Shown here piece after piece: positions 5,048 through 24,856 of a stretch of DNA of 64,000 nucleotides (the first letter of the stretch is position 1; each line of letters starts with the position of its first letter). This DNA is from Escherichia coli. GTDB lineage: Bacteria; Pseudomonadota; Gammaproteobacteria; Enterobacterales; Enterobacteriaceae. The notes under the pieces were generated by a model. It saw nothing but the letters and a program-made list of their open reading frames with translations, was not told the DNA's origin and ran no database searches. Position numbers and translations under genes: made by a program. Location: assembly GCF_003018255.1 (NCBI RefSeq), contig NZ_CP027440.1; one strand, written 5' to 3'.

Positions 5048-5257
5048 AAAACGCCTTAGTAAGTATTTTTCAGCTTTTCATTCTGACTGCAACGGGCAAT
5101 ATGTCTCTGTGTGGATTAAAAAAAGAGTGTCTGATAGCAGCTTCTGAAATGGTTACCTGCCGTGAGTAAATTAAAATTTTATTGACTTAGGTCACTAAAT
5201 ACTTTAACCAATATAGGCATAGCGCACAGACAGATAAAAATTACAGAGTACACAACA

Positions 5258-5326
<69 letters not shown>

Positions 5327-5344
5327 CGCGTACAGGAAACACAG

Positions 5345-5380
5345 AAAAAAGCCCGCACCTGACAGTGCGGGCTTTTTTTT
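5345..5380 (+). terminator. thr attenuator (rho-independent terminator)
   Basis: Hairpin GCCCGCAC-ctgaca-GTGCGGGC followed by an 8-T run, between thrL and thrA. Confidence 0.9.
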
Positions 5381-5406
5381 CGACCAAAGGTAACGAGGTA
5401 ACAACC

Positions 5407-7869
5407 ATGCGAGTGTTGAAGTTCGGCGGTACATCAGTGGCAAATGCAGAACGTTTTCTGCGGGTTGCCGATATTCTGGAAAGCAATGCCAGGCAGGGGC
5501 AGGTGGCCACCGTCCTCTCTGCCCCCGCCAAAATCACCAACCACCTGGTGGCGATGATTGAAAAAACCATTAGCTGCCAGGATGCTTTACCCAATATCAG
5601 CGATGCCGAACGTATTTTTGCCGAACTTTTGACGGGACTCGCCGCCGCCCAGCCGGGGTTCCCGCTGGCGCAATTGAAAACTTTCGTCGATCAGGAATTT
5701 GCCCAAATAAAACATGTCCTGCATGGCATTAGTTTGTTGGGGCAGTGCCCGGATAGCATCAACGCTGCGCTGATTTGCCGTGGCGAGAAAATGTCGATCG
5801 CCATTATGGCCGGCGTATTAGAAGCGCGCGGTCACAACGTTACCGTTATCGATCCGGTCGAAAAACTGCTGGCAGTGGGGCATTACCTCGAATCTACCGT
5901 CGATATTGCTGAGTCCACCCGCCGTATTGCGGCAAGTCGTATTCCGGCTGATCACATGGTGTTGATGGCAGGTTTCACCGCCGGTAATGAAAAAGGCGAA
6001 CTGGTGGTGCTTGGACGTAACGGTTCCGACTACTCCGCGGCGGTGCTGGCTGCCTGTTTACGCGCCGATTGTTGCGAGATTTGGACGGACGTTGACGGGG
6101 TCTATACCTGCGACCCGCGTCAGGTGCCCGATGCGAGGTTGTTGAAGTCGATGTCCTACCAGGAAGCGATGGAGCTTTCCTACTTCGGCGCTAAAGTTCT
6201 TCACCCCCGCACAATTACCCCCATCGCCCAGTTCCAGATCCCTTGCCTGATTAAAAATACCGGAAATCCTCAAGCACCAGGTACGCTCATTGGTGCCAGC
6301 CGTGATGAAGACGAATTACCGGTCAAGGGCATTTCCAATCTGAATAACATGGCAATGTTCAGCGTTTCTGGTCCGGGGATGAAAGGGATGGTCGGCATGG
6401 CGGCGCGCGTCTTTGCAGCGATGTCACGCGCCCGTATTTCCGTGGTGCTGATTACGCAATCATCTTCCGAATACAGTATCAGTTTCTGCGTTCCACAAAG
6501 CGACTGTGTGCGAGCTGAACGGGCAATGCAGGAAGAGTTCTACCTGGAACTGAAAGAAGGCTTACTGGAGCCGCTGGCGGTGACGGAACGGCTGGCCATT
6601 ATCTCGGTGGTAGGTGATGGTATGCGCACCTTGCGTGGGATCTCGGCGAAATTCTTTGCCGCGCTGGCCCGCGCCAATATCAACATTGTCGCCATTGCTC
6701 AGGGATCTTCTGAACGCTCAATCTCTGTCGTGGTAAATAACGATGATGCGACCACTGGCGTGCGCGTTACTCATCAGATGCTGTTCAATACCGATCAGGT
6801 TATCGAAGTGTTTGTGATTGGCGTCGGTGGCGTTGGCGGTGCGCTGCTGGAGCAACTGAAGCGTCAGCAAAGCTGGTTGAAGAATAAACATATCGACTTA
6901 CGTGTCTGCGGCGTTGCCAACTCGAAGGCTCTGCTCACCAATGTACATGGCCTTAATCTGGAAAACTGGCAGGAAGAACTGGCGCAAGCCAAAGAGCCGT
7001 TTAATCTCGGGCGCTTAATTCGCCTCGTGAAAGAATATCATCTGCTGAACCCGGTCATTGTTGACTGCACCTCCAGCCAGGCAGTGGCGGATCAATATGC
7101 CGACTTCCTGCGCGAAGGTTTCCACGTCGTCACGCCGAACAAAAAGGCTAACACCTCGTCGATGGATTACTACCATCTGTTGCGTCATGCGGCGGAAAAA
7201 TCGCGGCGTAAATTCCTCTATGACACCAACGTTGGGGCTGGATTACCGGTTATTGAGAACCTGCAAAATCTGCTCAATGCAGGTGATGAATTGATGAAGT
7301 TCTCCGGCATTCTTTCTGGTTCGCTTTCTTATATCTTCGGCAAGTTAGACGAAGGCATGAGTTTCTCCGAGGCGACCACGTTGGCGCGGGAAATGGGTTA
7401 TACCGAACCGGATCCGCGAGATGATCTTTCTGGTATGGATGTGGCGCGTAAACTATTGATTCTCGCTCGTGAAACGGGACGTGAACTGGAGCTGGCGGAT
7501 ATTGAAATTGAACCTGTGCTACCCGCTGAGTTTAACGCCGAGGGTGATGTTGCCGCTTTTATGGCGAATCTGTCACAGCTCGATGATCTCTTTGCCGCTC
7601 GTGTGGCGAAGGCCCGTGATGAAGGAAAAGTTTTGCGCTATGTTGGCAATATTGATGAAGATGGCGTCTGCCGCGTGAAGATTGCTGAAGTGGATGGCAA
7701 CGATCCGCTGTTCAAAGTGAAAAACGGCGAAAACGCCCTGGCCTTCTATAGCCACTATTATCAGCCGCTGCCGTTGGTGCTGCGCGGATATGGTGCGGGC
7801 AATGACGTTACAGCTGCCGGTGTCTTTGCCGATCTGCTACGTACCCTCTCATGGAAGTTAGGAGTCTGA
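5407..7869 (+). CDS. thrA: Bifunctional aspartokinase I / homoserine dehydrogenase I
   Basis: 820-aa product [17 protein letters not shown]...; start at the conserved ATG rather than the in-frame upstream extension from 5365. Confidence 0.98.
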
Positions 7870-7870
7870 C

Positions 7871-8803
7871 ATGGTTAAAGTTTATGCCCCGGCTTCCAGT
7901 GCCAATATGAGCGTCGGGTTCGATGTGCTCGGGGCGGCGGTGACACCCGTTGATGGTGCATTGCTCGGAGATGTAGTCACGGTTGAGGCGGCAGAGACAT
8001 TCAGTCTCAATAACCTCGGACGCTTTGCCGATAAGCTGCCGTCAGAACCTCGGGAAAATATCGTTTATCAGTGTTGGGAGCGTTTTTGCCAGGAGCTGGG
8101 TAAGCAAATTCCAGTGGCGATGACCCTGGAAAAGAATATGCCGATCGGCTCGGGCTTAGGCTCCAGCGCCTGCTCAGTGGTCGCGGCGCTGATGGCGATG
8201 AATGAACACTGCGGCAAGCCGCTTAATGACACCCGTTTGCTGGCTTTGATGGGCGAGCTGGAAGGGCGTATCTCCGGCAGCATTCATTACGACAACGTGG
8301 CACCGTGTTTTCTCGGTGGTATGCAGTTGATGATCGAAGAAAACGACATCATCAGCCAGCAAGTGCCAGGGTTTGATGAGTGGCTGTGGGTGCTGGCGTA
8401 TCCGGGGATTAAAGTCTCGACGGCAGAAGCCAGGGCTATTTTACCGGCGCAGTATCGCCGCCAGGATTGCATTGCGCACGGGCGACATCTGGCAGGCTTT
8501 ATTCACGCCTGCTATTCCCGTCAGCCTGAGCTTGCCGCGAAGCTGATGAAAGATGTTATCGCTGAACCCTACCGTGAACGGTTACTGCCAGGCTTCCGGC
8601 AGGCGCGGCAGGCGGTCGCGGAAATCGGCGCGGTAGCGAGCGGTATCTCCGGCTCCGGCCCGACTTTGTTCGCTCTGTGTGACAAGCCGGATACCGCCCA
8701 GCGCGTTGCCGACTGGTTGGGTAAGAACTACCTGCAAAATCAGGAAGGTTTTGTTCATATTTGCCGGCTGGATACGGCGGGCGCACGAGTACTGGAAAAC
8801 TAA
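7871..8803 (+). CDS. thrB: Homoserine kinase
   Basis: 310-aa [27 protein letters not shown]..., GHMP kinase motif [10 protein letters not shown]. Confidence 0.98.
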
Positions 8804-10090
8804 ATGAAACTCTACAATCTGAAAGATCACAATGAGCAGGTCAGCTTTGCGCAAGCCGTAACCCAGGGGTTGGGCAAAAATCAGGGGCTGTTTTTCCCGC
8901 ACGACCTGCCGGAATTCAGCCTGACTGAAATTGATGAGATGCTGAAGCTGGATTTTGTCACCCGCAGTGCGAAGATCCTCTCGGCGTTTATTGGTGATGA
9001 AATCCCGCAGGAAATCCTGGAAGAGCGCGTACGCGCGGCGTTTGTCTTCCCGGCTCCGGTCGCCAATGTTGAAAGCGATGTCGGTTGTCTGGAATTGTTC
9101 CACGGGCCAACGCTGGCATTTAAAGATTTCGGCGGTCGCTTTATGGCACAAATGCTGACCCATATTGCGGGCGATAAGCCAGTGACCATTCTGACCGCGA
9201 CCTCCGGTGATACCGGAGCGGCAGTGGCTCATGCTTTCTACGGTTTGCCGAATGTGAAAGTGGTTATCCTCTATCCACGAGGCAAAATCAGTCCACTGCA
9301 AGAAAAACTGTTCTGTACATTGGGCGGCAATATTGAAACTGTTGCCATCGACGGCGATTTCGATGCCTGTCAGGCGCTGGTGAAGCAGGCGTTTGATGAT
9401 GAAGAACTGAAAGTGGCGCTGGGGCTAAACTCAGCTAACTCGATTAACATCAGCCGTTTGCTGGCGCAGATTTGCTACTACTTTGAAGCTGTTGCGCAGC
9501 TGCCGCAGGAGGCGCGCAACCAGCTGGTTGTCTCGGTGCCAAGCGGAAACTTCGGCGATTTGACGGCGGGTCTGCTGGCGAAGTCACTCGGTCTGCCGGT
9601 GAAACGTTTTATTGCTGCGACCAACGTGAACGATACCGTGCCACGTTTCCTGCACGACGGTCAGTGGTCACCCAAAGCGACTCAGGCGACGTTATCCAAC
9701 GCGATGGACGTGAGTCAGCCGAACAACTGGCCGCGTGTGGAAGAGTTGTTCCGCCGCAAAATCTGGCAACTGAAAGAGCTGGGTTATGCAGCCGTGGATG
9801 ATGAAACCACGCAACAGACAATGCGTGAGTTAAAAGAACTGGGCTACACTTCGGAGCCGCACGCTGCCGTAGCGTATCGTGCACTGCGTGACCAGTTGCA
9901 TCCAGGCGAATATGGCTTGTTCCTCGGCACCGCGCATCCGGCGAAATTTAAAGAGAGCGTGGAAGCGATTCTCGGTGAAACGTTGGATCTGCCAAAAGAG
10001 CTGGCAGAACGTGCCGATTTACCCTTGCTTTCACATAATCTGCCCGCCGATTTTGCTGCGTTGCGTAAATTGATGATGAATCATCAGTAA
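8804..10090 (+). CDS. thrC: Threonine synthase
   Basis: 428-aa ORF MKLYNLKDHNEQVSFAQAVTQGL...; immediately follows thrB. Confidence 0.98.
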   Translation: MKLYNLKDHNEQVSFAQAVTQGLGKNQGLFFPHDLPEFSLTEIDEMLKLDFVTRSAKILSAFIGDEIPQEILEERVRAAFVFPAPVANVESDVGCLELFHGPTLAFKDFGGRFMAQMLTHIAGDKPVTILTATSGDTGAAVAHAFYGLPNVKVVILYPRGKISPLQEKLFCTLGGNIETVAIDGDFDACQALVKQAFDDEELKVALGLNSANSINISRLLAQICYYFEAVAQLPQEARNQLVVSVPSGNFGDLTAGLLAKSLGLPVKRFIAATNVNDTVPRFLHDGQWSPKATQATLSNAMDVSQPNNWPRVEELFRRKIWQLKELGYAAVDDETTQQTMRELKELGYTSEPHAAVAYRALRDQLHPGEYGLFLGTAHPAKFKESVEAILGETLDLPKELAERADLPLLSHNLPADFAALRKLMMNHQ

Positions 10091-10110
10091 TATCTATTCA
10101 TTATCTCAAT

Positions 10111-10146
10111 CAGGCCGGGTTTGCTTTTATGCAGCCCGGCTTTTTT
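10111..10146 (+). terminator. thr operon terminator
   Basis: GC-rich hairpin (GCCGGGTTTGC...GCAGCCCGGC) followed by TTTTTT. Confidence 0.8.
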
Positions 10147-10303
10147 ATGAAGAAATTATGGAGAAAAACGACAGGGAAAAAGGAGAAATGCTCAATAAAT
10201 GCGGTAACTTAGAGATTAGGATTGCGGAGAATAACAACTGCCGTTCTCATCGCGTAATCTCCGGATATCGACCCATAACGGGCAATGATAAAAGGAGTAA
10301 CCT

Positions 10304-19123: not shown

Positions 19124-20254
19124 ATGGCTAAGCAAGATTATTACGAGATTTTAGGCGTTTCCAAAACAGCGGAAGAGCGTGAAATCAAAAAGGCCTACAA
19201 ACGCCTGGCCATGAAATACCACCCGGACCGTAACCAGGGTGACAAAGAGGCCGAGGCGAAATTTAAAGAGATCAAGGAAGCTTATGAAGTTCTGACCGAC
19301 TCGCAAAAACGTGCGGCATACGATCAGTATGGTCATGCTGCGTTTGAGCAAGGTGGCATGGGAGGCGGCGGTTTCGGCGGCGGCGCAGACTTCAGCGATA
19401 TTTTTGGTGACGTTTTCGGCGATATTTTTGGCGGCGGACGTGGTCGTCAACGTGCGGCGCGCGGTGCTGATTTACGCTATAACATGGAGCTCACCCTCGA
19501 AGAAGCTGTACGTGGCGTGACCAAAGAGATCCGCATTCCGACTCTGGAAGAGTGTGACGTTTGCCACGGTAGCGGTGCAAAACCAGGTACACAGCCGCAG
19601 ACCTGTCCGACCTGTCATGGTTCTGGTCAGGTGCAGATGCGCCAGGGTTTCTTTGCCGTGCAGCAGACCTGTCCACACTGTCAGGGCCGCGGTACGCTGA
19701 TCAAAGATCCGTGCAACAAATGTCATGGTCATGGTCGTGTTGAGCGCAGCAAAACGCTGTCCGTTAAAATCCCGGCAGGGGTGGACACTGGAGACCGCAT
19801 CCGTCTTGCGGGCGAAGGTGAAGCGGGCGAGCATGGCGCACCGGCAGGCGATCTGTACGTTCAGGTTCAGGTTAAACAGCACCCGATTTTCGAGCGTGAA
19901 GGCAACAACCTCTATTGCGAAGTCCCGATCAACTTCGCTATGGCGGCGCTGGGTGGCGAAATCGAAGTACCGACCCTTGATGGTCGCGTCAAACTGAAAG
20001 TGCCTGGCGAAACCCAGACCGGTAAGCTGTTCCGTATGCGCGGTAAAGGCGTCAAGTCTGTCCGCGGTGGCGCACAGGGTGATTTGCTGTGCCGCGTTGT
20101 CGTCGAAACACCGGTAGGCCTGAACGAGAAGCAGAAACAGCTGCTGCAAGAGCTGCAAGAAAGCTTCGGTGGCCCAACCGGCGAGCACAACAGCCCGCGC
20201 TCAAAGAGCTTCTTTGATGGTGTGAAGAAGTTTTTTGACGACCTGACCCGCTAA
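19124..20254 (+). CDS. dnaJ: Co-chaperone DnaJ (Hsp40)
   Basis: 376-aa product [38 protein letters not shown]..., J-domain, G/F-rich region, four CxxCxGxG zinc-finger repeats. Confidence 0.99.
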
Positions 20255-20260
20255 TCTCCC

Positions 20261-20290
20261 CAAAAGCCTGCCCGTGGGCAGGCCTGGGTA
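20261..20290. terminator. Hairpin terminator shared by convergent dnaJ and hokC transcripts
   Basis: GCCTGCCC-gtg-GGCAGGC hairpin with an A-run on the + strand, giving a U-run after the hairpin on the hokC strand. Confidence 0.65.
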
Positions 20291-20357
20291 AAAATAGGGT
20301 GCGTTGAAGATATGCGAGCACCTGAAAAGTGGCGGGGATCACTCCCCGCCGTTGCTC

Positions 20358-20510
20358 TTACTCGGATTCGTAAGCCGTGAAAACAGCAACCTCCGTCTGG
20401 CCAGTTCGGATGTGAACCTCACAGAGGTCTTTTCTCGTTACCAGCGCCGCCACTACGGCGGTGATACAGATGACGATCAGGGCGACAATCATCGCCTTAG
20501 GCTGCTTCAT
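20358..20510 (-). CDS. hokC: Hok/Gef family type I toxin HokC (50 aa)
   Basis: MKQPKAMIVALIVICITAVVAALVTRKDLCEVHIRTGQTEVAVFTAYESE: single TM helix plus conserved C-terminal motif. Confidence 0.9.
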   Translation of the reverse strand: MKQPKAMIVALIVICITAVVAALVTRKDLCEVHIRTGQTEVAVFTAYESE

Positions 20511-20567
20511 TGCTCTCTTCTCCTTGACCTTACGGTCAGTAAGAGGCACTCTACATGTGTTCTGCAT
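20358..20567 (-). CDS. mokC: MokC, overlapping reading frame that mediates hokC translation
   Basis: 69-codon frame MQNTCRVPLTDRKVKEKRA... running into hokC in the same frame. Confidence 0.7.
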   Translation of the reverse strand: MQNTCRVPLTDRKVKEKRAMKQPKAMIVALIVICITAVVAALVTRKDLCEVHIRTGQTEVAVFTAYESE

Positions 20568-20615: not shown

Positions 20616-21095
20616 ATCTGCCGTTCAGCTAATGCCTGAGACAGACAGCCTCAAGCACCCGCCGCTATTATATCGCTCTCTTTAACCCATTCTGTTTTAT
20701 CGATTCTAATCCTGAAGACGCCTCGCATTTTTATGGCGTAATTTTTTAATGATTTAATTATTTAACTTTAATTTATCTCTTCATCGCAATTATTGACGAC
20801 AAACTGGATTATTTTTGAAGTATTGGCCTAACAAACATCGCCGACTGACAACAAATTAATTATTACTTTTCCTAATTAATCCCTCAGAAATCCTGACCTT
20901 AAGCTATGATTATCAGGGCTTAGGGTCACACGTCAGCGCTTACAGCCGTCAAAAACTCATCTCATCACTGATGACGCAAATCCTTCAATGCCTCGTAAAA
21001 AGCGAATTATTCCTACACTATAATCTGATTTTAACGATGATTCGTGCGGGGTAAGATAGTAAAAACGATCTATTCACCTGAAAGAGAAATAAAAA

Positions 21096-22262
21096 GTGAA
21101 ACATCTGCATCGATTCTTTAGCAGTGATGCCTCGGGAGGCATTATTCTTATCATTGCCGCTATCCTGGCGATGATTATGGCCAACAGCGGCGCAACCAGT
21201 GGATGGTATCACGACTTTCTGGAGACGCCGGTTCAGCTCCGGGTTGGTTCACTCGAAATCAACAAAAACATGCTGTTATGGATAAATGACGCGCTGATGG
21301 CGGTATTTTTCCTGTTAGTCGGTCTGGAAGTTAAACGTGAACTGATGCAAGGATCGCTAGCCAGCTTACGCCAGGCTGCATTTCCAGTTATCGCCGCTAT
21401 TGGTGGGATGATTGTGCCGGCATTACTCTATCTGGCCTTTAACCATGCCGATCCGATTACCCGCGAAGGGTGGGCGATCCCGGCGGCTACTGACATTGCT
21501 TTTGCACTTGGTGTGCTGGCGCTGTTGGGAAGTCGTGTTCCGTTAGCCCTGAAGATCTTTTTGATGGCTCTGGCTATTATCGACGATCTTGGGGCCATCA
21601 TTATCATCGCATTGTTCTACACTAATGACTTATCGATGGCCTCTCTTGGCGTCGCGGCTGTAGCAATTGCGGTACTCGCGGTATTGAATCTGTGTGGTGT
21701 ACGCCGCACGGGCGTCTATATTCTGGTTGGCGTGGTGTTGTGGACTGCGGTGTTGAAATCGGGGGTTCACGCAACCCTGGCGGGGGTAATTGTCGGCTTC
21801 TTTATTCCTTTGAAAGAGAAGCATGGGCGTTCTCCAGCGAAGCGACTGGAGCATGTGTTGCACCCGTGGGTGGCGTATCTGATTTTACCGCTGTTTGCAT
21901 TTGCTAATGCTGGCGTTTCACTGCAAGGCGTCACGCTGGATGGCTTGACCTCCATTCTGCCATTGGGGATCATCGCTGGCTTGCTGATTGGCAAACCGCT
22001 GGGGATTAGTCTGTTCTGCTGGTTGGCGCTGCGTTTGAAACTGGCGCATCTGCCTGAGGGAACGACTTATCAGCAAATTATGGCGGTGGGGATCCTGTGC
22101 GGTATCGGTTTTACTATGTCTATCTTTATTGCCAGCCTGGCCTTTGGTAGCGTAGATCCAGAACTGATTAACTGGGCGAAACTCGGTATCCTGGTCGGTT
22201 CTATCTCTTCGGCGGTAATTGGATACAGCTGGTTACGCGTTCGTTTGCGTCCATCAGTTTGA
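21096..22262 (+). CDS. nhaA: Na+/H+ antiporter NhaA
   Basis: 388-aa membrane [33 protein letters not shown]... Confidence 0.98.
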
Positions 22263-22276
22263 CAGGACGGTTTACC

Positions 22277-22303
22277 GGGGAGCCATAAACGGCTCCCTTT
22301 TCA
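22277..22303 (+). terminator. Hairpin downstream of nhaA (partial terminator/attenuator before nhaR)
   Basis: GGGGAGCC-ataaac-GGCTCCC followed by TTTTC. Confidence 0.5.
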
Positions 22304-22321
22304 TTGTTATCAGGGAGAGAA

Positions 22322-23227
22322 ATGAGCATGTCTCATATCAATTACAACCACTTGTATTACTTCTGGCATGTCTATAAAGAAGGTTCCGTGGTTGGCGCAG
22401 CGGAGGCGCTTTATTTAACACCACAAACCATTACCGGACAGATTCGGGCGCTGGAAGAGCGCCTGCAAGGCAAATTATTTAAGCGCAAGGGACGTGGCCT
22501 CGAGCCCAGCGAGCTGGGAGAGCTGGTCTATCGCTATGCCGATAAAATGTTCACCTTAAGCCAGGAAATGCTGGATATCGTCAACTATCGCAAAGAGTCC
22601 AACTTATTGTTTGATGTTGGTGTGGCAGATGCACTTTCCAAACGTCTGGTCAGCAGTGTTCTGGATGCCGCAGTTGTGGAAGACGAGCAGATCCATCTAC
22701 GCTGTTTCGAATCGACGCACGAGATGCTTTTAGAGCAGTTGAGTCAGCATAAACTGGATATGATCATCTCTGACTGTCCGATCGATTCCACTCAGCAGGA
22801 AGGGCTGTTTTCCATGAAAATTGGCGAATGTGGTGTCAGTTTCTGGTGCACTAACCCACTACCAGAAAAGCCGTTTCCTGCCTGTCTTGAAGAGCGTCGT
22901 TTACTTATTCCGGGGCGTCGCTCAATGTTGGGGCGTAAGCTATTAAACTGGTTTAACTCCCAGGGCTTGAACGTCGAAATTTTGGGTGAGTTTGATGATG
23001 CTGCGTTGATGAAAGCCTTTGGGGCGACGCATAACGCTATTTTCGTTGCACCTTCGCTTTACGCTAATGATTTCTATAACGATGACTCGGTTGTGGAGAT
23101 AGGCCGTGTTGAGAACGTGATGGAAGAGTACCACGCGATTTTTGCCGAAAGGATGATTCAGCACCCTGCAGTACAGCGTATCTGCAATACAGACTATTCT
23201 GCGCTGTTTACTCCAGCTTCAAAATAA
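22322..23227 (+). CDS. nhaR: LysR-type transcriptional activator NhaR
   Basis: 301-aa product [46 protein letters not shown]... with HTH. Confidence 0.97.
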
Positions 23228-23270
23228 ACATTTGTACTTTGCAGGCCGAATTTTGGCCTGCAGATGGATA

Positions 23271-23300
23271 TAAAAAAACCCGCCAGAGCGGGTTTTTTTA
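23271..23300. terminator. Bidirectional rho-independent terminator between convergent nhaR and rpsT
   Basis: AAAAAAACCCGCCAGAGCGGGTTTTTTT, a symmetric hairpin with A- and T-runs; a second hairpin GCAGGCC-gaatttt-GGCCTGC lies at 23241-23261. Confidence 0.85.
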
Positions 23301-23322
23301 CAAAGCTGACAACAACAGGCAA

Positions 23323-23607
<285 letters not shown>

Positions 23608-23688
23608 CTATATGGACAATTCAAAGGCCGAGGAATATGCCCTTTTAGCCTTCTTTTGTCAATGGATTTGTGCAAATAAGCGCCGTTA

Positions 23689-23907
23689 ATGTGCCGGCAC
23701 TCGTTACGTAGTGATGGCGCAGGATTCTACCAGCTTGCGGGGTGTGAATACAGCTTTTCCGCGAGAAAAATTGCAGCAGGCGGTCAGTTTCTTCCCATGA
23801 TTTGCGCCATAGCAATGAAAAGCCACTTCTTTCTGATTTCGGTACTCAATCGCCGGTTAACCTTGACCGCTGTACAAGGTATACTCGGACGATTTTCACT
23901 GTTTTGA
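23689..23907 (+). CDS. yaaY: Uncharacterized small protein YaaY (72 aa)
   Basis: ORF MCRHSLRSDGAGFYQLAGCEY... immediately upstream of ribF; weak coding signal. Confidence 0.5.
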   Translation: MCRHSLRSDGAGFYQLAGCEYSFSARKIAAGGQFLPMICAIAMKSHFFLISVLNRRLTLTAVQGILGRFSLF

Positions 23908-23914
23908 GCCAGAC

Positions 23915-24856
23915 ATGAAGCTGATACGCGGCATACATAATCTCAGCCAGGCCCCGCAAGAAGGGTGTGTGCTGACTATTGGTAATTTCGACGGCGTGCA
24001 TCGCGGTCATCGCGCGCTGTTACAGGGCTTGCAGGAAGAAGGGCGCAAGCGCAACTTACCGGTGATGGTGATGCTTTTTGAACCTCAACCACTGGAACTG
24101 TTTGCTACTGATAAAGCCCCGGCACGGCTCACCCGGCTGCGGGAAAAACTGCGTTATCTTGCAGAGTGTGGTGTTGATTACGTGCTGTGCGTGCGTTTTG
24201 ACAGGCGTTTTGCGGCGTTAACCGCGCAAAACTTCATCAGTGATCTTCTGGTGAAGCACTTGCGGGTAAAATTTCTTGCCGTAGGTGACGATTTCCGCTT
24301 TGGCGCTGGTCGTGAAGGCGATTTCTTGTTATTACAGAAAGCGGGCATGGAATACGGCTTCGATATCACCAGCACGCAAACTTTTTGCGAAGGTGGCGTG
24401 CGTATCAGCAGCACCGCCGTGCGTCAGGCGCTTGCGGATGACAATCTGGCTCTGGCAGAAAGTTTACTGGGGCACCCGTTTGCTATCTCCGGGCGTGTAG
24501 TCCACGGTGATGAATTAGGGCGCACTATAGGTTTCCCGACGGCGAATGTACCGCTACGCCGTCAGGTTTCCCCGGTGAAAGGGGTTTATGCGGTAGAAGT
24601 GTTGGGCCTTGGCGAAAAGCCGTTACCCGGCGTTGCAAACATCGGAACACGCCCAACGGTTGCCGGTATTCGCCAGCAACTGGAAGTGCATTTGTTAGAT
24701 GTTGCAATGGACCTTTATGGTCGCCATATACAAGTAGTGCTGCGTAAAAAAATACGCAATGAGCAGCGATTTGCATCGCTGGACGAACTGAAAGCGCAGA
24801 TTGCGCGTGATGAATTAACCGCCCGCGAATTTTTTGGGCTAACAAAACCGGCTTAA
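23915..24856 (+). CDS. ribF: Bifunctional riboflavin kinase / FMN adenylyltransferase
   Basis: 313-aa ORF MKLIRGIHNLSQAPQEGCVLTIGNFDGVHRGHRALL... Confidence 0.98.
   Translation: MKLIRGIHNLSQAPQEGCVLTIGNFDGVHRGHRALLQGLQEEGRKRNLPVMVMLFEPQPLELFATDKAPARLTRLREKLRYLAECGVDYVLCVRFDRRFAALTAQNFISDLLVKHLRVKFLAVGDDFRFGAGREGDFLLLQKAGMEYGFDITSTQTFCEGGVRISSTAVRQALADDNLALAESLLGHPFAISGRVVHGDELGRTIGFPTANVPLRRQVSPVKGVYAVEVLGLGEKPLPGVANIGTRPTVAGIRQQLEVHLLDVAMDLYGRHIQVVLRKKIRNEQRFASLDELKAQIARDELTAREFFGLTKPA

Follow-up and report, generated by a model that had tools for sequence, protein, structure and literature searches.

As is well known, IS1A of K-12 neighbours the rpsT terminator at the nhaR locus, and this terminator is said to have been covered by Mackie's work on rpsT mRNA. 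It has been called a strong Rho-independent terminator that adjoins IS1A "at the nhaR locus" (PMC12428005). Termination in both directions between convergent genes of E. coli is likewise a well-known subject. According to Lescat et al. [quoted passage not shown] The same study describes mobile modules that flank nhaAR and are gained and lost, namely adhesin/fimbrial and type III effector modules, reports nhaA recombinants among low-virulence B2 strains, and ties the locus to extra-intestinal virulence. The locus studied here resembles that description in the divergence of nhaR and in the downstream fimbrial and effector modules that come and go; it differs in that the window strain carries a non-B2-like nhaA. 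Relative to this description, our analysis adds the exact boundaries of a divergent block, an allele with a GH31 glycoside hydrolase and an MFS transporter (GH31+MFS), allele counts in 5,426 genomes, the compact layout of the whole family and the assignment of the K-12 flanks to the island ends. Relative to that text, the nhaR-rpsT spacer is ordinary and mostly already published; the additions are refinements, include no new kind of feature and do not challenge current understanding.

The window is the whole stretch of E. coli DNA analyzed (64,000 nucleotides), and positions refer to it unless another sequence is named. From the ORF list, nhaA occupies 21096-22262 on the + strand. It is followed by nhaR (22322-23227, + strand), a LysR-type activator gene identified by its ORF, its translation and the RefSeq annotation of 100%-identical genomes. 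Convergent with nhaR is rpsT (23323-23586, - strand; ORF and annotation), which encodes ribosomal protein S20, and the gene list places yaaY (DUF2575; 23689-23907, + strand) and ribF (23915-24856, + strand) beyond it. The nhaR TAA stop codon spans 23225-23227 and rpsT ends at 23323; by these ORF coordinates the spacer is 23228-23322, exactly the 95 bp given in the preliminary description. The searched nhaR–yaaY stretch, 22800-23900, shows 100% identity to E. coli ATCC 11775 (= DSM 30083). Upstream of rpsT, a promoter-like TTGACA-17-CATATT is found at 23634-23662 (- strand), which we take to be the position expected for one known rpsT promoter.

Two hairpins had been noticed in the spacer, one of them with the shape of a symmetric bidirectional terminator, and both do fold, on either strand, far below shuffled sequence. 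The terminator-shaped module reads identically in outline on both strands and consists of A7 (23272-23278), CCCGC (23279-23283), the loop CAGA, GCGGG (23288-23292) and T7 (23293-23299). Its folding energy is -16.8 kcal/mol on the + strand and -19.2 kcal/mol on the - strand (z about -7), while the whole 95-bp spacer gives z = -5.7 (+ strand) and -6.2 (- strand). Each strand presents the stem-loop and U-tract of an intrinsic terminator, CCCGC-CAGA-GCGGG-T7 on the + strand and CCCGC-UCUG-GCGGG-U7 on the - strand. The position also fits convergent genes, as the A-tract starts 44 nt past the nhaR stop and the module lies 23 nt from the rpsT stop. The stem has only five G-C pairs, which counts against a terminator. 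A consensus terminator scan did not list 23272-23299, and direct folding was used in its place; the scan probably missed the module by extending the stem into the A/T runs, which would leave no free T-tail. A search of Rfam at a permissive E-value returned no family at its gathering threshold, the best match being STnc370, which scored 32 bits where its gathering score is 54. The sub-threshold matches were to unrelated families, generic in their terminator-like shape and present on both strands, and Rfam family membership was dropped for the spacer since all matches fell below threshold. We propose that the single A7-stem-loop-T7 module (23272-23299) would act as a Rho-independent terminator for both the rpsT (- strand) and nhaAR (+ strand) transcripts; termination on either strand in the window strain is predicted from the sequence, its conservation and the K-12 literature.

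The closest counterpart is the rpsT terminator of K-12. It likewise lies ~23 nt past the rpsT stop and has the same order of A-run, CCCGC...GCGGG and T-run, with a stem identical to that of the window. In contrast, its loop is TTGC rather than CAGA, and the rpsT 3' UTR also differs; in the window the latter covers 23300-23322 (- strand), from the stop codon to the terminator, as delimited by the sequence and the family alignment. A by-eye comparison counted 12 differences over the 56 bases of the module, rpsT 3' UTR and stop codon. The surroundings differ as well: the 44 nt between the nhaR stop and the module predict direct termination of nhaAR in the window, whereas in K-12 the two are separated by ~1.1 kb of island remnant and IS1. 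Despite the differing 3' UTR and loop, rpsT itself is 99-100% identical to K-12. The rpsT 3' UTR/terminator sequence GACAACAACAGGCAATTA, common to the window, R8 and S88, is nearer to the Enterobacteriaceae consensus than the K-12 version.

To place this layout in the family, GTDB species representatives were scanned for NhaR, which yielded the 80 best loci across Enterobacteriaceae, with rpsT inside the fetched DNA in 68. The spacer is at most 200 bp in 58 of these 68 loci, ranging from 47 to 200 bp and typically measuring 57-75 bp, and in many genera the module lies just a few bases past the nhaR stop. All 58 short spacers contain ATAAAAAAACCCGC-loop-GCGGGTTTTTT, with about 22 nt between it and the rpsT stop. 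In an alignment of 65 distinct Enterobacteriaceae sequences, 100% of the cells at the five stem pairs are paired, and the loop varies in sequence and length. Compensatory double changes occur at two of the five pairs (9 cells), from C-G to G-C in Buttiauxella and one Enterobacter, plus one more. By comparison, registers slid by 1-3 columns are only 22-45% paired, and none of 500 shuffles matched the observed paired fraction or covariation score. Because the module and its pairing are kept across the family, the compact tail-to-tail junction with one common terminator is the ancestral, selected enterobacterial layout. For annotation, this means that the short spacer is the normal enterobacterial arrangement and that the K-12 reference shows a degraded form, with island stumps and IS1.

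The length of the K-12 spacer was then accounted for. In MG1655, nhaR ends at 19620, IS1A is annotated at 19796-20563 and rpsT at 20815-21078; the spacer therefore measures 1194 bp (175 + 768 + 251), which exceeds the window by 1099 bp. The preliminary description had named the IS1 copy and had given this shortfall by coordinate arithmetic, and its K-12 coordinates agree with the annotated ones. It had also remarked that 1099 bp is more than IS1 plus a target duplication, and had offered two explanations, extra flanking sequence in K-12 or an additional deletion in the window strain. The plainest model behind such a comparison is a simple insertion, in which K-12 has the window spacer plus IS1 (768 bp) and a 9-bp duplication, with ~300 bp of slack. 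IS1A does occupy the same nhaR-rpsT site in K-12 and is absent from the window, as this model says. However, the alignment with MG1655 showed a length gap unequal to IS1 plus a duplication. Homology between the window and K-12 ends at 23217, ten bases short of the nhaR end, and restarts at 23270, the first base of ATAAAAAAACCCGC; across comparisons with K-12, O55:H7, BL21 and R8, it stops at 23217-23221 and resumes at 23270. In a global alignment of the window with K-12, only scattered chance blocks of 3-11 bp were found in 23218-23269, which indicates non-homology, and the implied picture of one common spacer with or without IS1 fails in this interval. The non-homologous segments measure 1151 bp in K-12 (10 + 175 + 768 + 198) and 52 bp in the window (10 + 42), and their difference is again 1099 bp.

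The K-12 flanks of IS1A match another allele. In O55:H7 CB9615, the spacer is 6,931 bp long and contains a chaperone-usher fimbrial cluster of four genes together with espX1, a type III effector gene. The left 175 bp of K-12 are 100% identical to the first 175 bp past nhaR in this genome (positions 123-297 of the O55:H7 stretch), and the right 251 bp, made up of 198 bp without and 53 bp with homology to the window, are 98.4% identical to the 249 bp that immediately precede rpsT there (positions 6803-7051 of the O55:H7 stretch). The 373 bases that K-12 has in excess of IS1 are thus the two ends of the 6.9-kb fimbrial/espX1 island, and the option of extra flanking sequence in K-12 is borne out. 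A simple IS1 insertion would leave an 8-9-bp duplication and flanks that are contiguous in the empty allele. Here, the sequences bordering IS1A, GTAATTGCT and TACCTCAAT, contain no target duplication, which fits an IS1-associated deletion, and the two flanks lie 6.5 kb apart in the intact O55:H7 island. Since the duplication is missing and the flanks are island ends (98-100% identical to O55:H7) without homology to the window spacer, the K-12 spacer is best described as stumps plus IS1, and simple insertion is extremely improbable. Collectively, these comparisons indicate that IS1A replaced 6,505 bp of the K-12 island and left two stumps. BL21 has an independently degraded copy of the island with IS1 in the opposite orientation. 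In island alleles, nhaR is followed by a hairpin of its own (CTCCCCC...GGGGGAG; NC_000913 19621-19664) in the left end of the island, convergent with the last gene of the fimbrial cluster, which presumably takes over as the nhaR-proximal terminator. A further degraded fimbrial/espX1 island, with a BL21-type nhaR, was seen in the MAG contig CASFSC010000151.1 ("uncultured Alistipes sp."). Its nhaR is 100% identical to K-12 in the 5' third and 99.5% in the 3' part, and the contig almost certainly represents E. coli DNA that was mis-binned into a Bacteroidota MAG.

Among 5,426 complete E. coli genomes, three alleles were counted at this site, and they sum to 5423. The fimbrial/espX1 island or its remnants are present in 4,227 genomes (1,193 of them at least 80% complete), a 3.8-kb GH31+MFS cassette in 640, e.g. 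strain R8 and ST131, and the compact allele, contiguous and with the divergent block at 99% identity or more, in 556. The three alleles are mutually non-homologous and together cover nearly all sequenced E. coli. In population-genetic terms, nhaR-rpsT is a clean case of three deep non-homologous alleles, one of which is tied to a foreign nhaR C-terminal domain. In R8, the cassette occupies 5168-9000 of its stretch, at an insertion site common to several genera; GH31+MFS is also found at the nhaR-rpsT site in Escherichia sp. E1V33, Citrobacter werkmanii, C. youngae, C. portucalensis and Klebsiella spallanzanii. Escherichia sp. MOD1-EC7003 carries a fourth cargo downstream of nhaR, composed of a LacI-family regulator, an enolase-superfamily (MR/MLE) enzyme and an MFS transporter (5956-10251 of its stretch). 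The nhaR 3' allele of this strain, again a foreign one, is 78% identical both to K-12 and to the window and groups with Kluyvera by neighbour-joining.

The compact allele is linked to a divergent haplotype block, delimited by pairwise comparisons at 22654-23269 (+ strand) and comprising nhaR nt 333-906 and 42 bp of unique spacer. The block is present at 99% identity or more in 556 of the 5,426 genomes, and a 43-bp query spanning the 42-bp unique sequence matched 557 genomes, once each. The window is 98-100% identical to K-12 through nhaA and the first third of nhaR; over the rest of nhaR, from about 22600 on, identity is only 74-86%. Similarly, compact S88 differs from R8, which has GH31+MFS, by 114 mismatches that all lie from nhaR nt 333 on; the two are identical upstream and beyond 23270. 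We take genomes of the S88/R8 type to belong to phylogroup B2. The block is roughly equidistant from everything sampled, at 77-82% identity to Escherichia, Citrobacter and Salmonella alike; individual values are 80.7% for K-12, 79% for E. albertii, 80.9% for Citrobacter Cu233 and 76-77% for Salmonella. In contrast to the block, the K-12-type nhaR 3' end tracks the genus, with identities of 96% in R8, 91% in SCPM-8794 and 87% in E. albertii. The divergence of about 20% over the adjoining 574 bp of nhaR is mostly synonymous, and the G+C content of the block is unremarkable. At the protein level, the NhaR tail of the window, ALFTPASK, is like the TPxSK of compact-spacer Citrobacter and Salmonella diarizonae and unlike the SPAxR of Escherichia. 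A neighbour-joining tree places the block outside E. coli, the cryptic clades and E. albertii with weak support, whereas the 5' third of nhaR nests inside E. coli; Biopython bootstraps were unreliable after rerooting, and only the topology and raw identities were used.

Two explanations would keep the compact allele within the lineage. In the first, the window lineage lost the island or GH31+MFS by a clean local deletion that left 95 bp, which corresponds to the additional deletion offered earlier. R8, with the same flanks as S88, does have GH31+MFS at the same boundaries, and deletions are common at this site, as in BL21, K-12 and a class with 64% coverage. However, neither cargo has left a remnant in 23228-23269, and the adjoining 574 bp of nhaR differ from R8 at 114 sites but are identical beyond the block. 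Furthermore, a compact spacer with an Escherichia-type nhaR 3' end is absent among the 5,426 genomes, in which the 557 carriers of the 42-bp unique spacer sequence agree in number with the 556 block carriers. A divergence of ~20% in the adjacent 574 bp is beyond what a local deletion can make, so homologous replacement is the best reading, and we regard local deletion as improbable. The earlier suggestion of a deletion in the window strain is not supported, as no island or cassette remnant is present and the nhaR 3' end is ~20% diverged; overall, the preliminary interpretation is partly supported.

In the second explanation, the site was never occupied: the compact allele and its nhaR 3' end came down by vertical inheritance from the ancestor of Escherichia, and the other alleles were inserted later. 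This is compatible with the compact layout as the family norm and with a 3' tree in which the block branches beside, not inside, other genera. On the other hand, the block falls outside the clade of E. albertii and E. coli and is equally far from K-12 (80.7%) and Citrobacter (80.9%), while the 5' part of nhaR is 97% identical to K-12, and a vertical polymorphism of this kind would predate the genus. The same-site GH31+MFS of Escherichia sp. E1V33, Citrobacter and Klebsiella spallanzanii also argues against it. Vertical descent is therefore unlikely, though slightly less so than local deletion.

Homologous replacement, rather than local deletion, most likely produced the compact allele. Most E. 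coli carry the 6.9-kb fimbrial-operon and espX1 island or its remnants between the last nhaR codons and the terminator, and the window carries a minority "empty" allele that travels with a nhaR 3' segment of foreign ancestry. In the scenario that we propose, the replacing DNA would have come from a lineage that lies outside the E. coli/E. albertii group and possessed the ancestral compact layout; the direction of the replacement is one that we infer. Taken as a whole, a standard enterobacterial junction, with island stumps and IS1 in K-12 and allelic replacement in the window, is in our judgment a highly probable account. A more specific version, to which we give an even chance, is that a xenologous patch of ~0.62 kb, from nhaR nt 333 to the rpsT terminator, came from an unsampled lineage outside E. 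coli and E. albertii through the nhaR and terminator/rpsT flanks and erased the 3.8-kb GH31+MFS. In this version, the junction would be a family-wide docking site for at least four unrelated cargoes (nothing, GH31+MFS, fimbriae with espX1, and LacI-family regulator with enolase-superfamily enzyme and MFS transporter), which would be swapped by flanking homology without integrases and would drag foreign nhaR 3' ends along. The donor search reached at most about 82% DNA identity in the 80 best nhaR loci of GTDB species representatives. When metagenome contigs were scanned for exact matches to the other hairpin of the spacer, hairpin 1, the hits were a single E. coli-like contig, which has this compact spacer too, and two chance hairpins that are unrelated. 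Neither search identified a donor.

Upstream of the block, nhaA and the first ~200 nt of nhaR in the window (20850-22520) are of the non-B2 type, with 98.8-100% identity to K-12 and about 93% to S88. Further upstream, the window has hokC (20358-20510, - strand) where S88 has a sulfatase module. Because of this non-B2-type nhaA and 5' nhaR, and of hokC in place of the sulfatase module, the nhaAR region of the window is a three-way mosaic. A divergent nhaA (90-95%) is present in about 1042 genomes.

Hairpin 1 (23238-23264, + strand) was identified by folding and belongs to the compact allele only. Its core stem is TGCAGGCC/GGCCTGCA, and it folds at -18.7 kcal/mol (z = -5.5 against shuffled sequence). 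Since it lacks a U-tract on both strands, it is not a terminator by itself. Within the window, a search for a second copy matched only the element itself on both strands, and hairpin 1 occurs at one place per genome in 557 of the 5,426 complete E. coli genomes. A REP/BIME or other dispersed repeat was considered and ruled out on these grounds, as the element is single-copy and allele-specific. It is an allele-specific stem-loop within the nhaR 3' UTR, and it might at most protect the 3' end or act as a pause structure. In STLEFF_47, which has the compact allele, a 1.3-kb IS3-family element is present between hairpin 1 and the terminator (5689-7000 of its stretch), flanked by a 3-bp ATG target duplication that corresponds to window positions 23264-23266.
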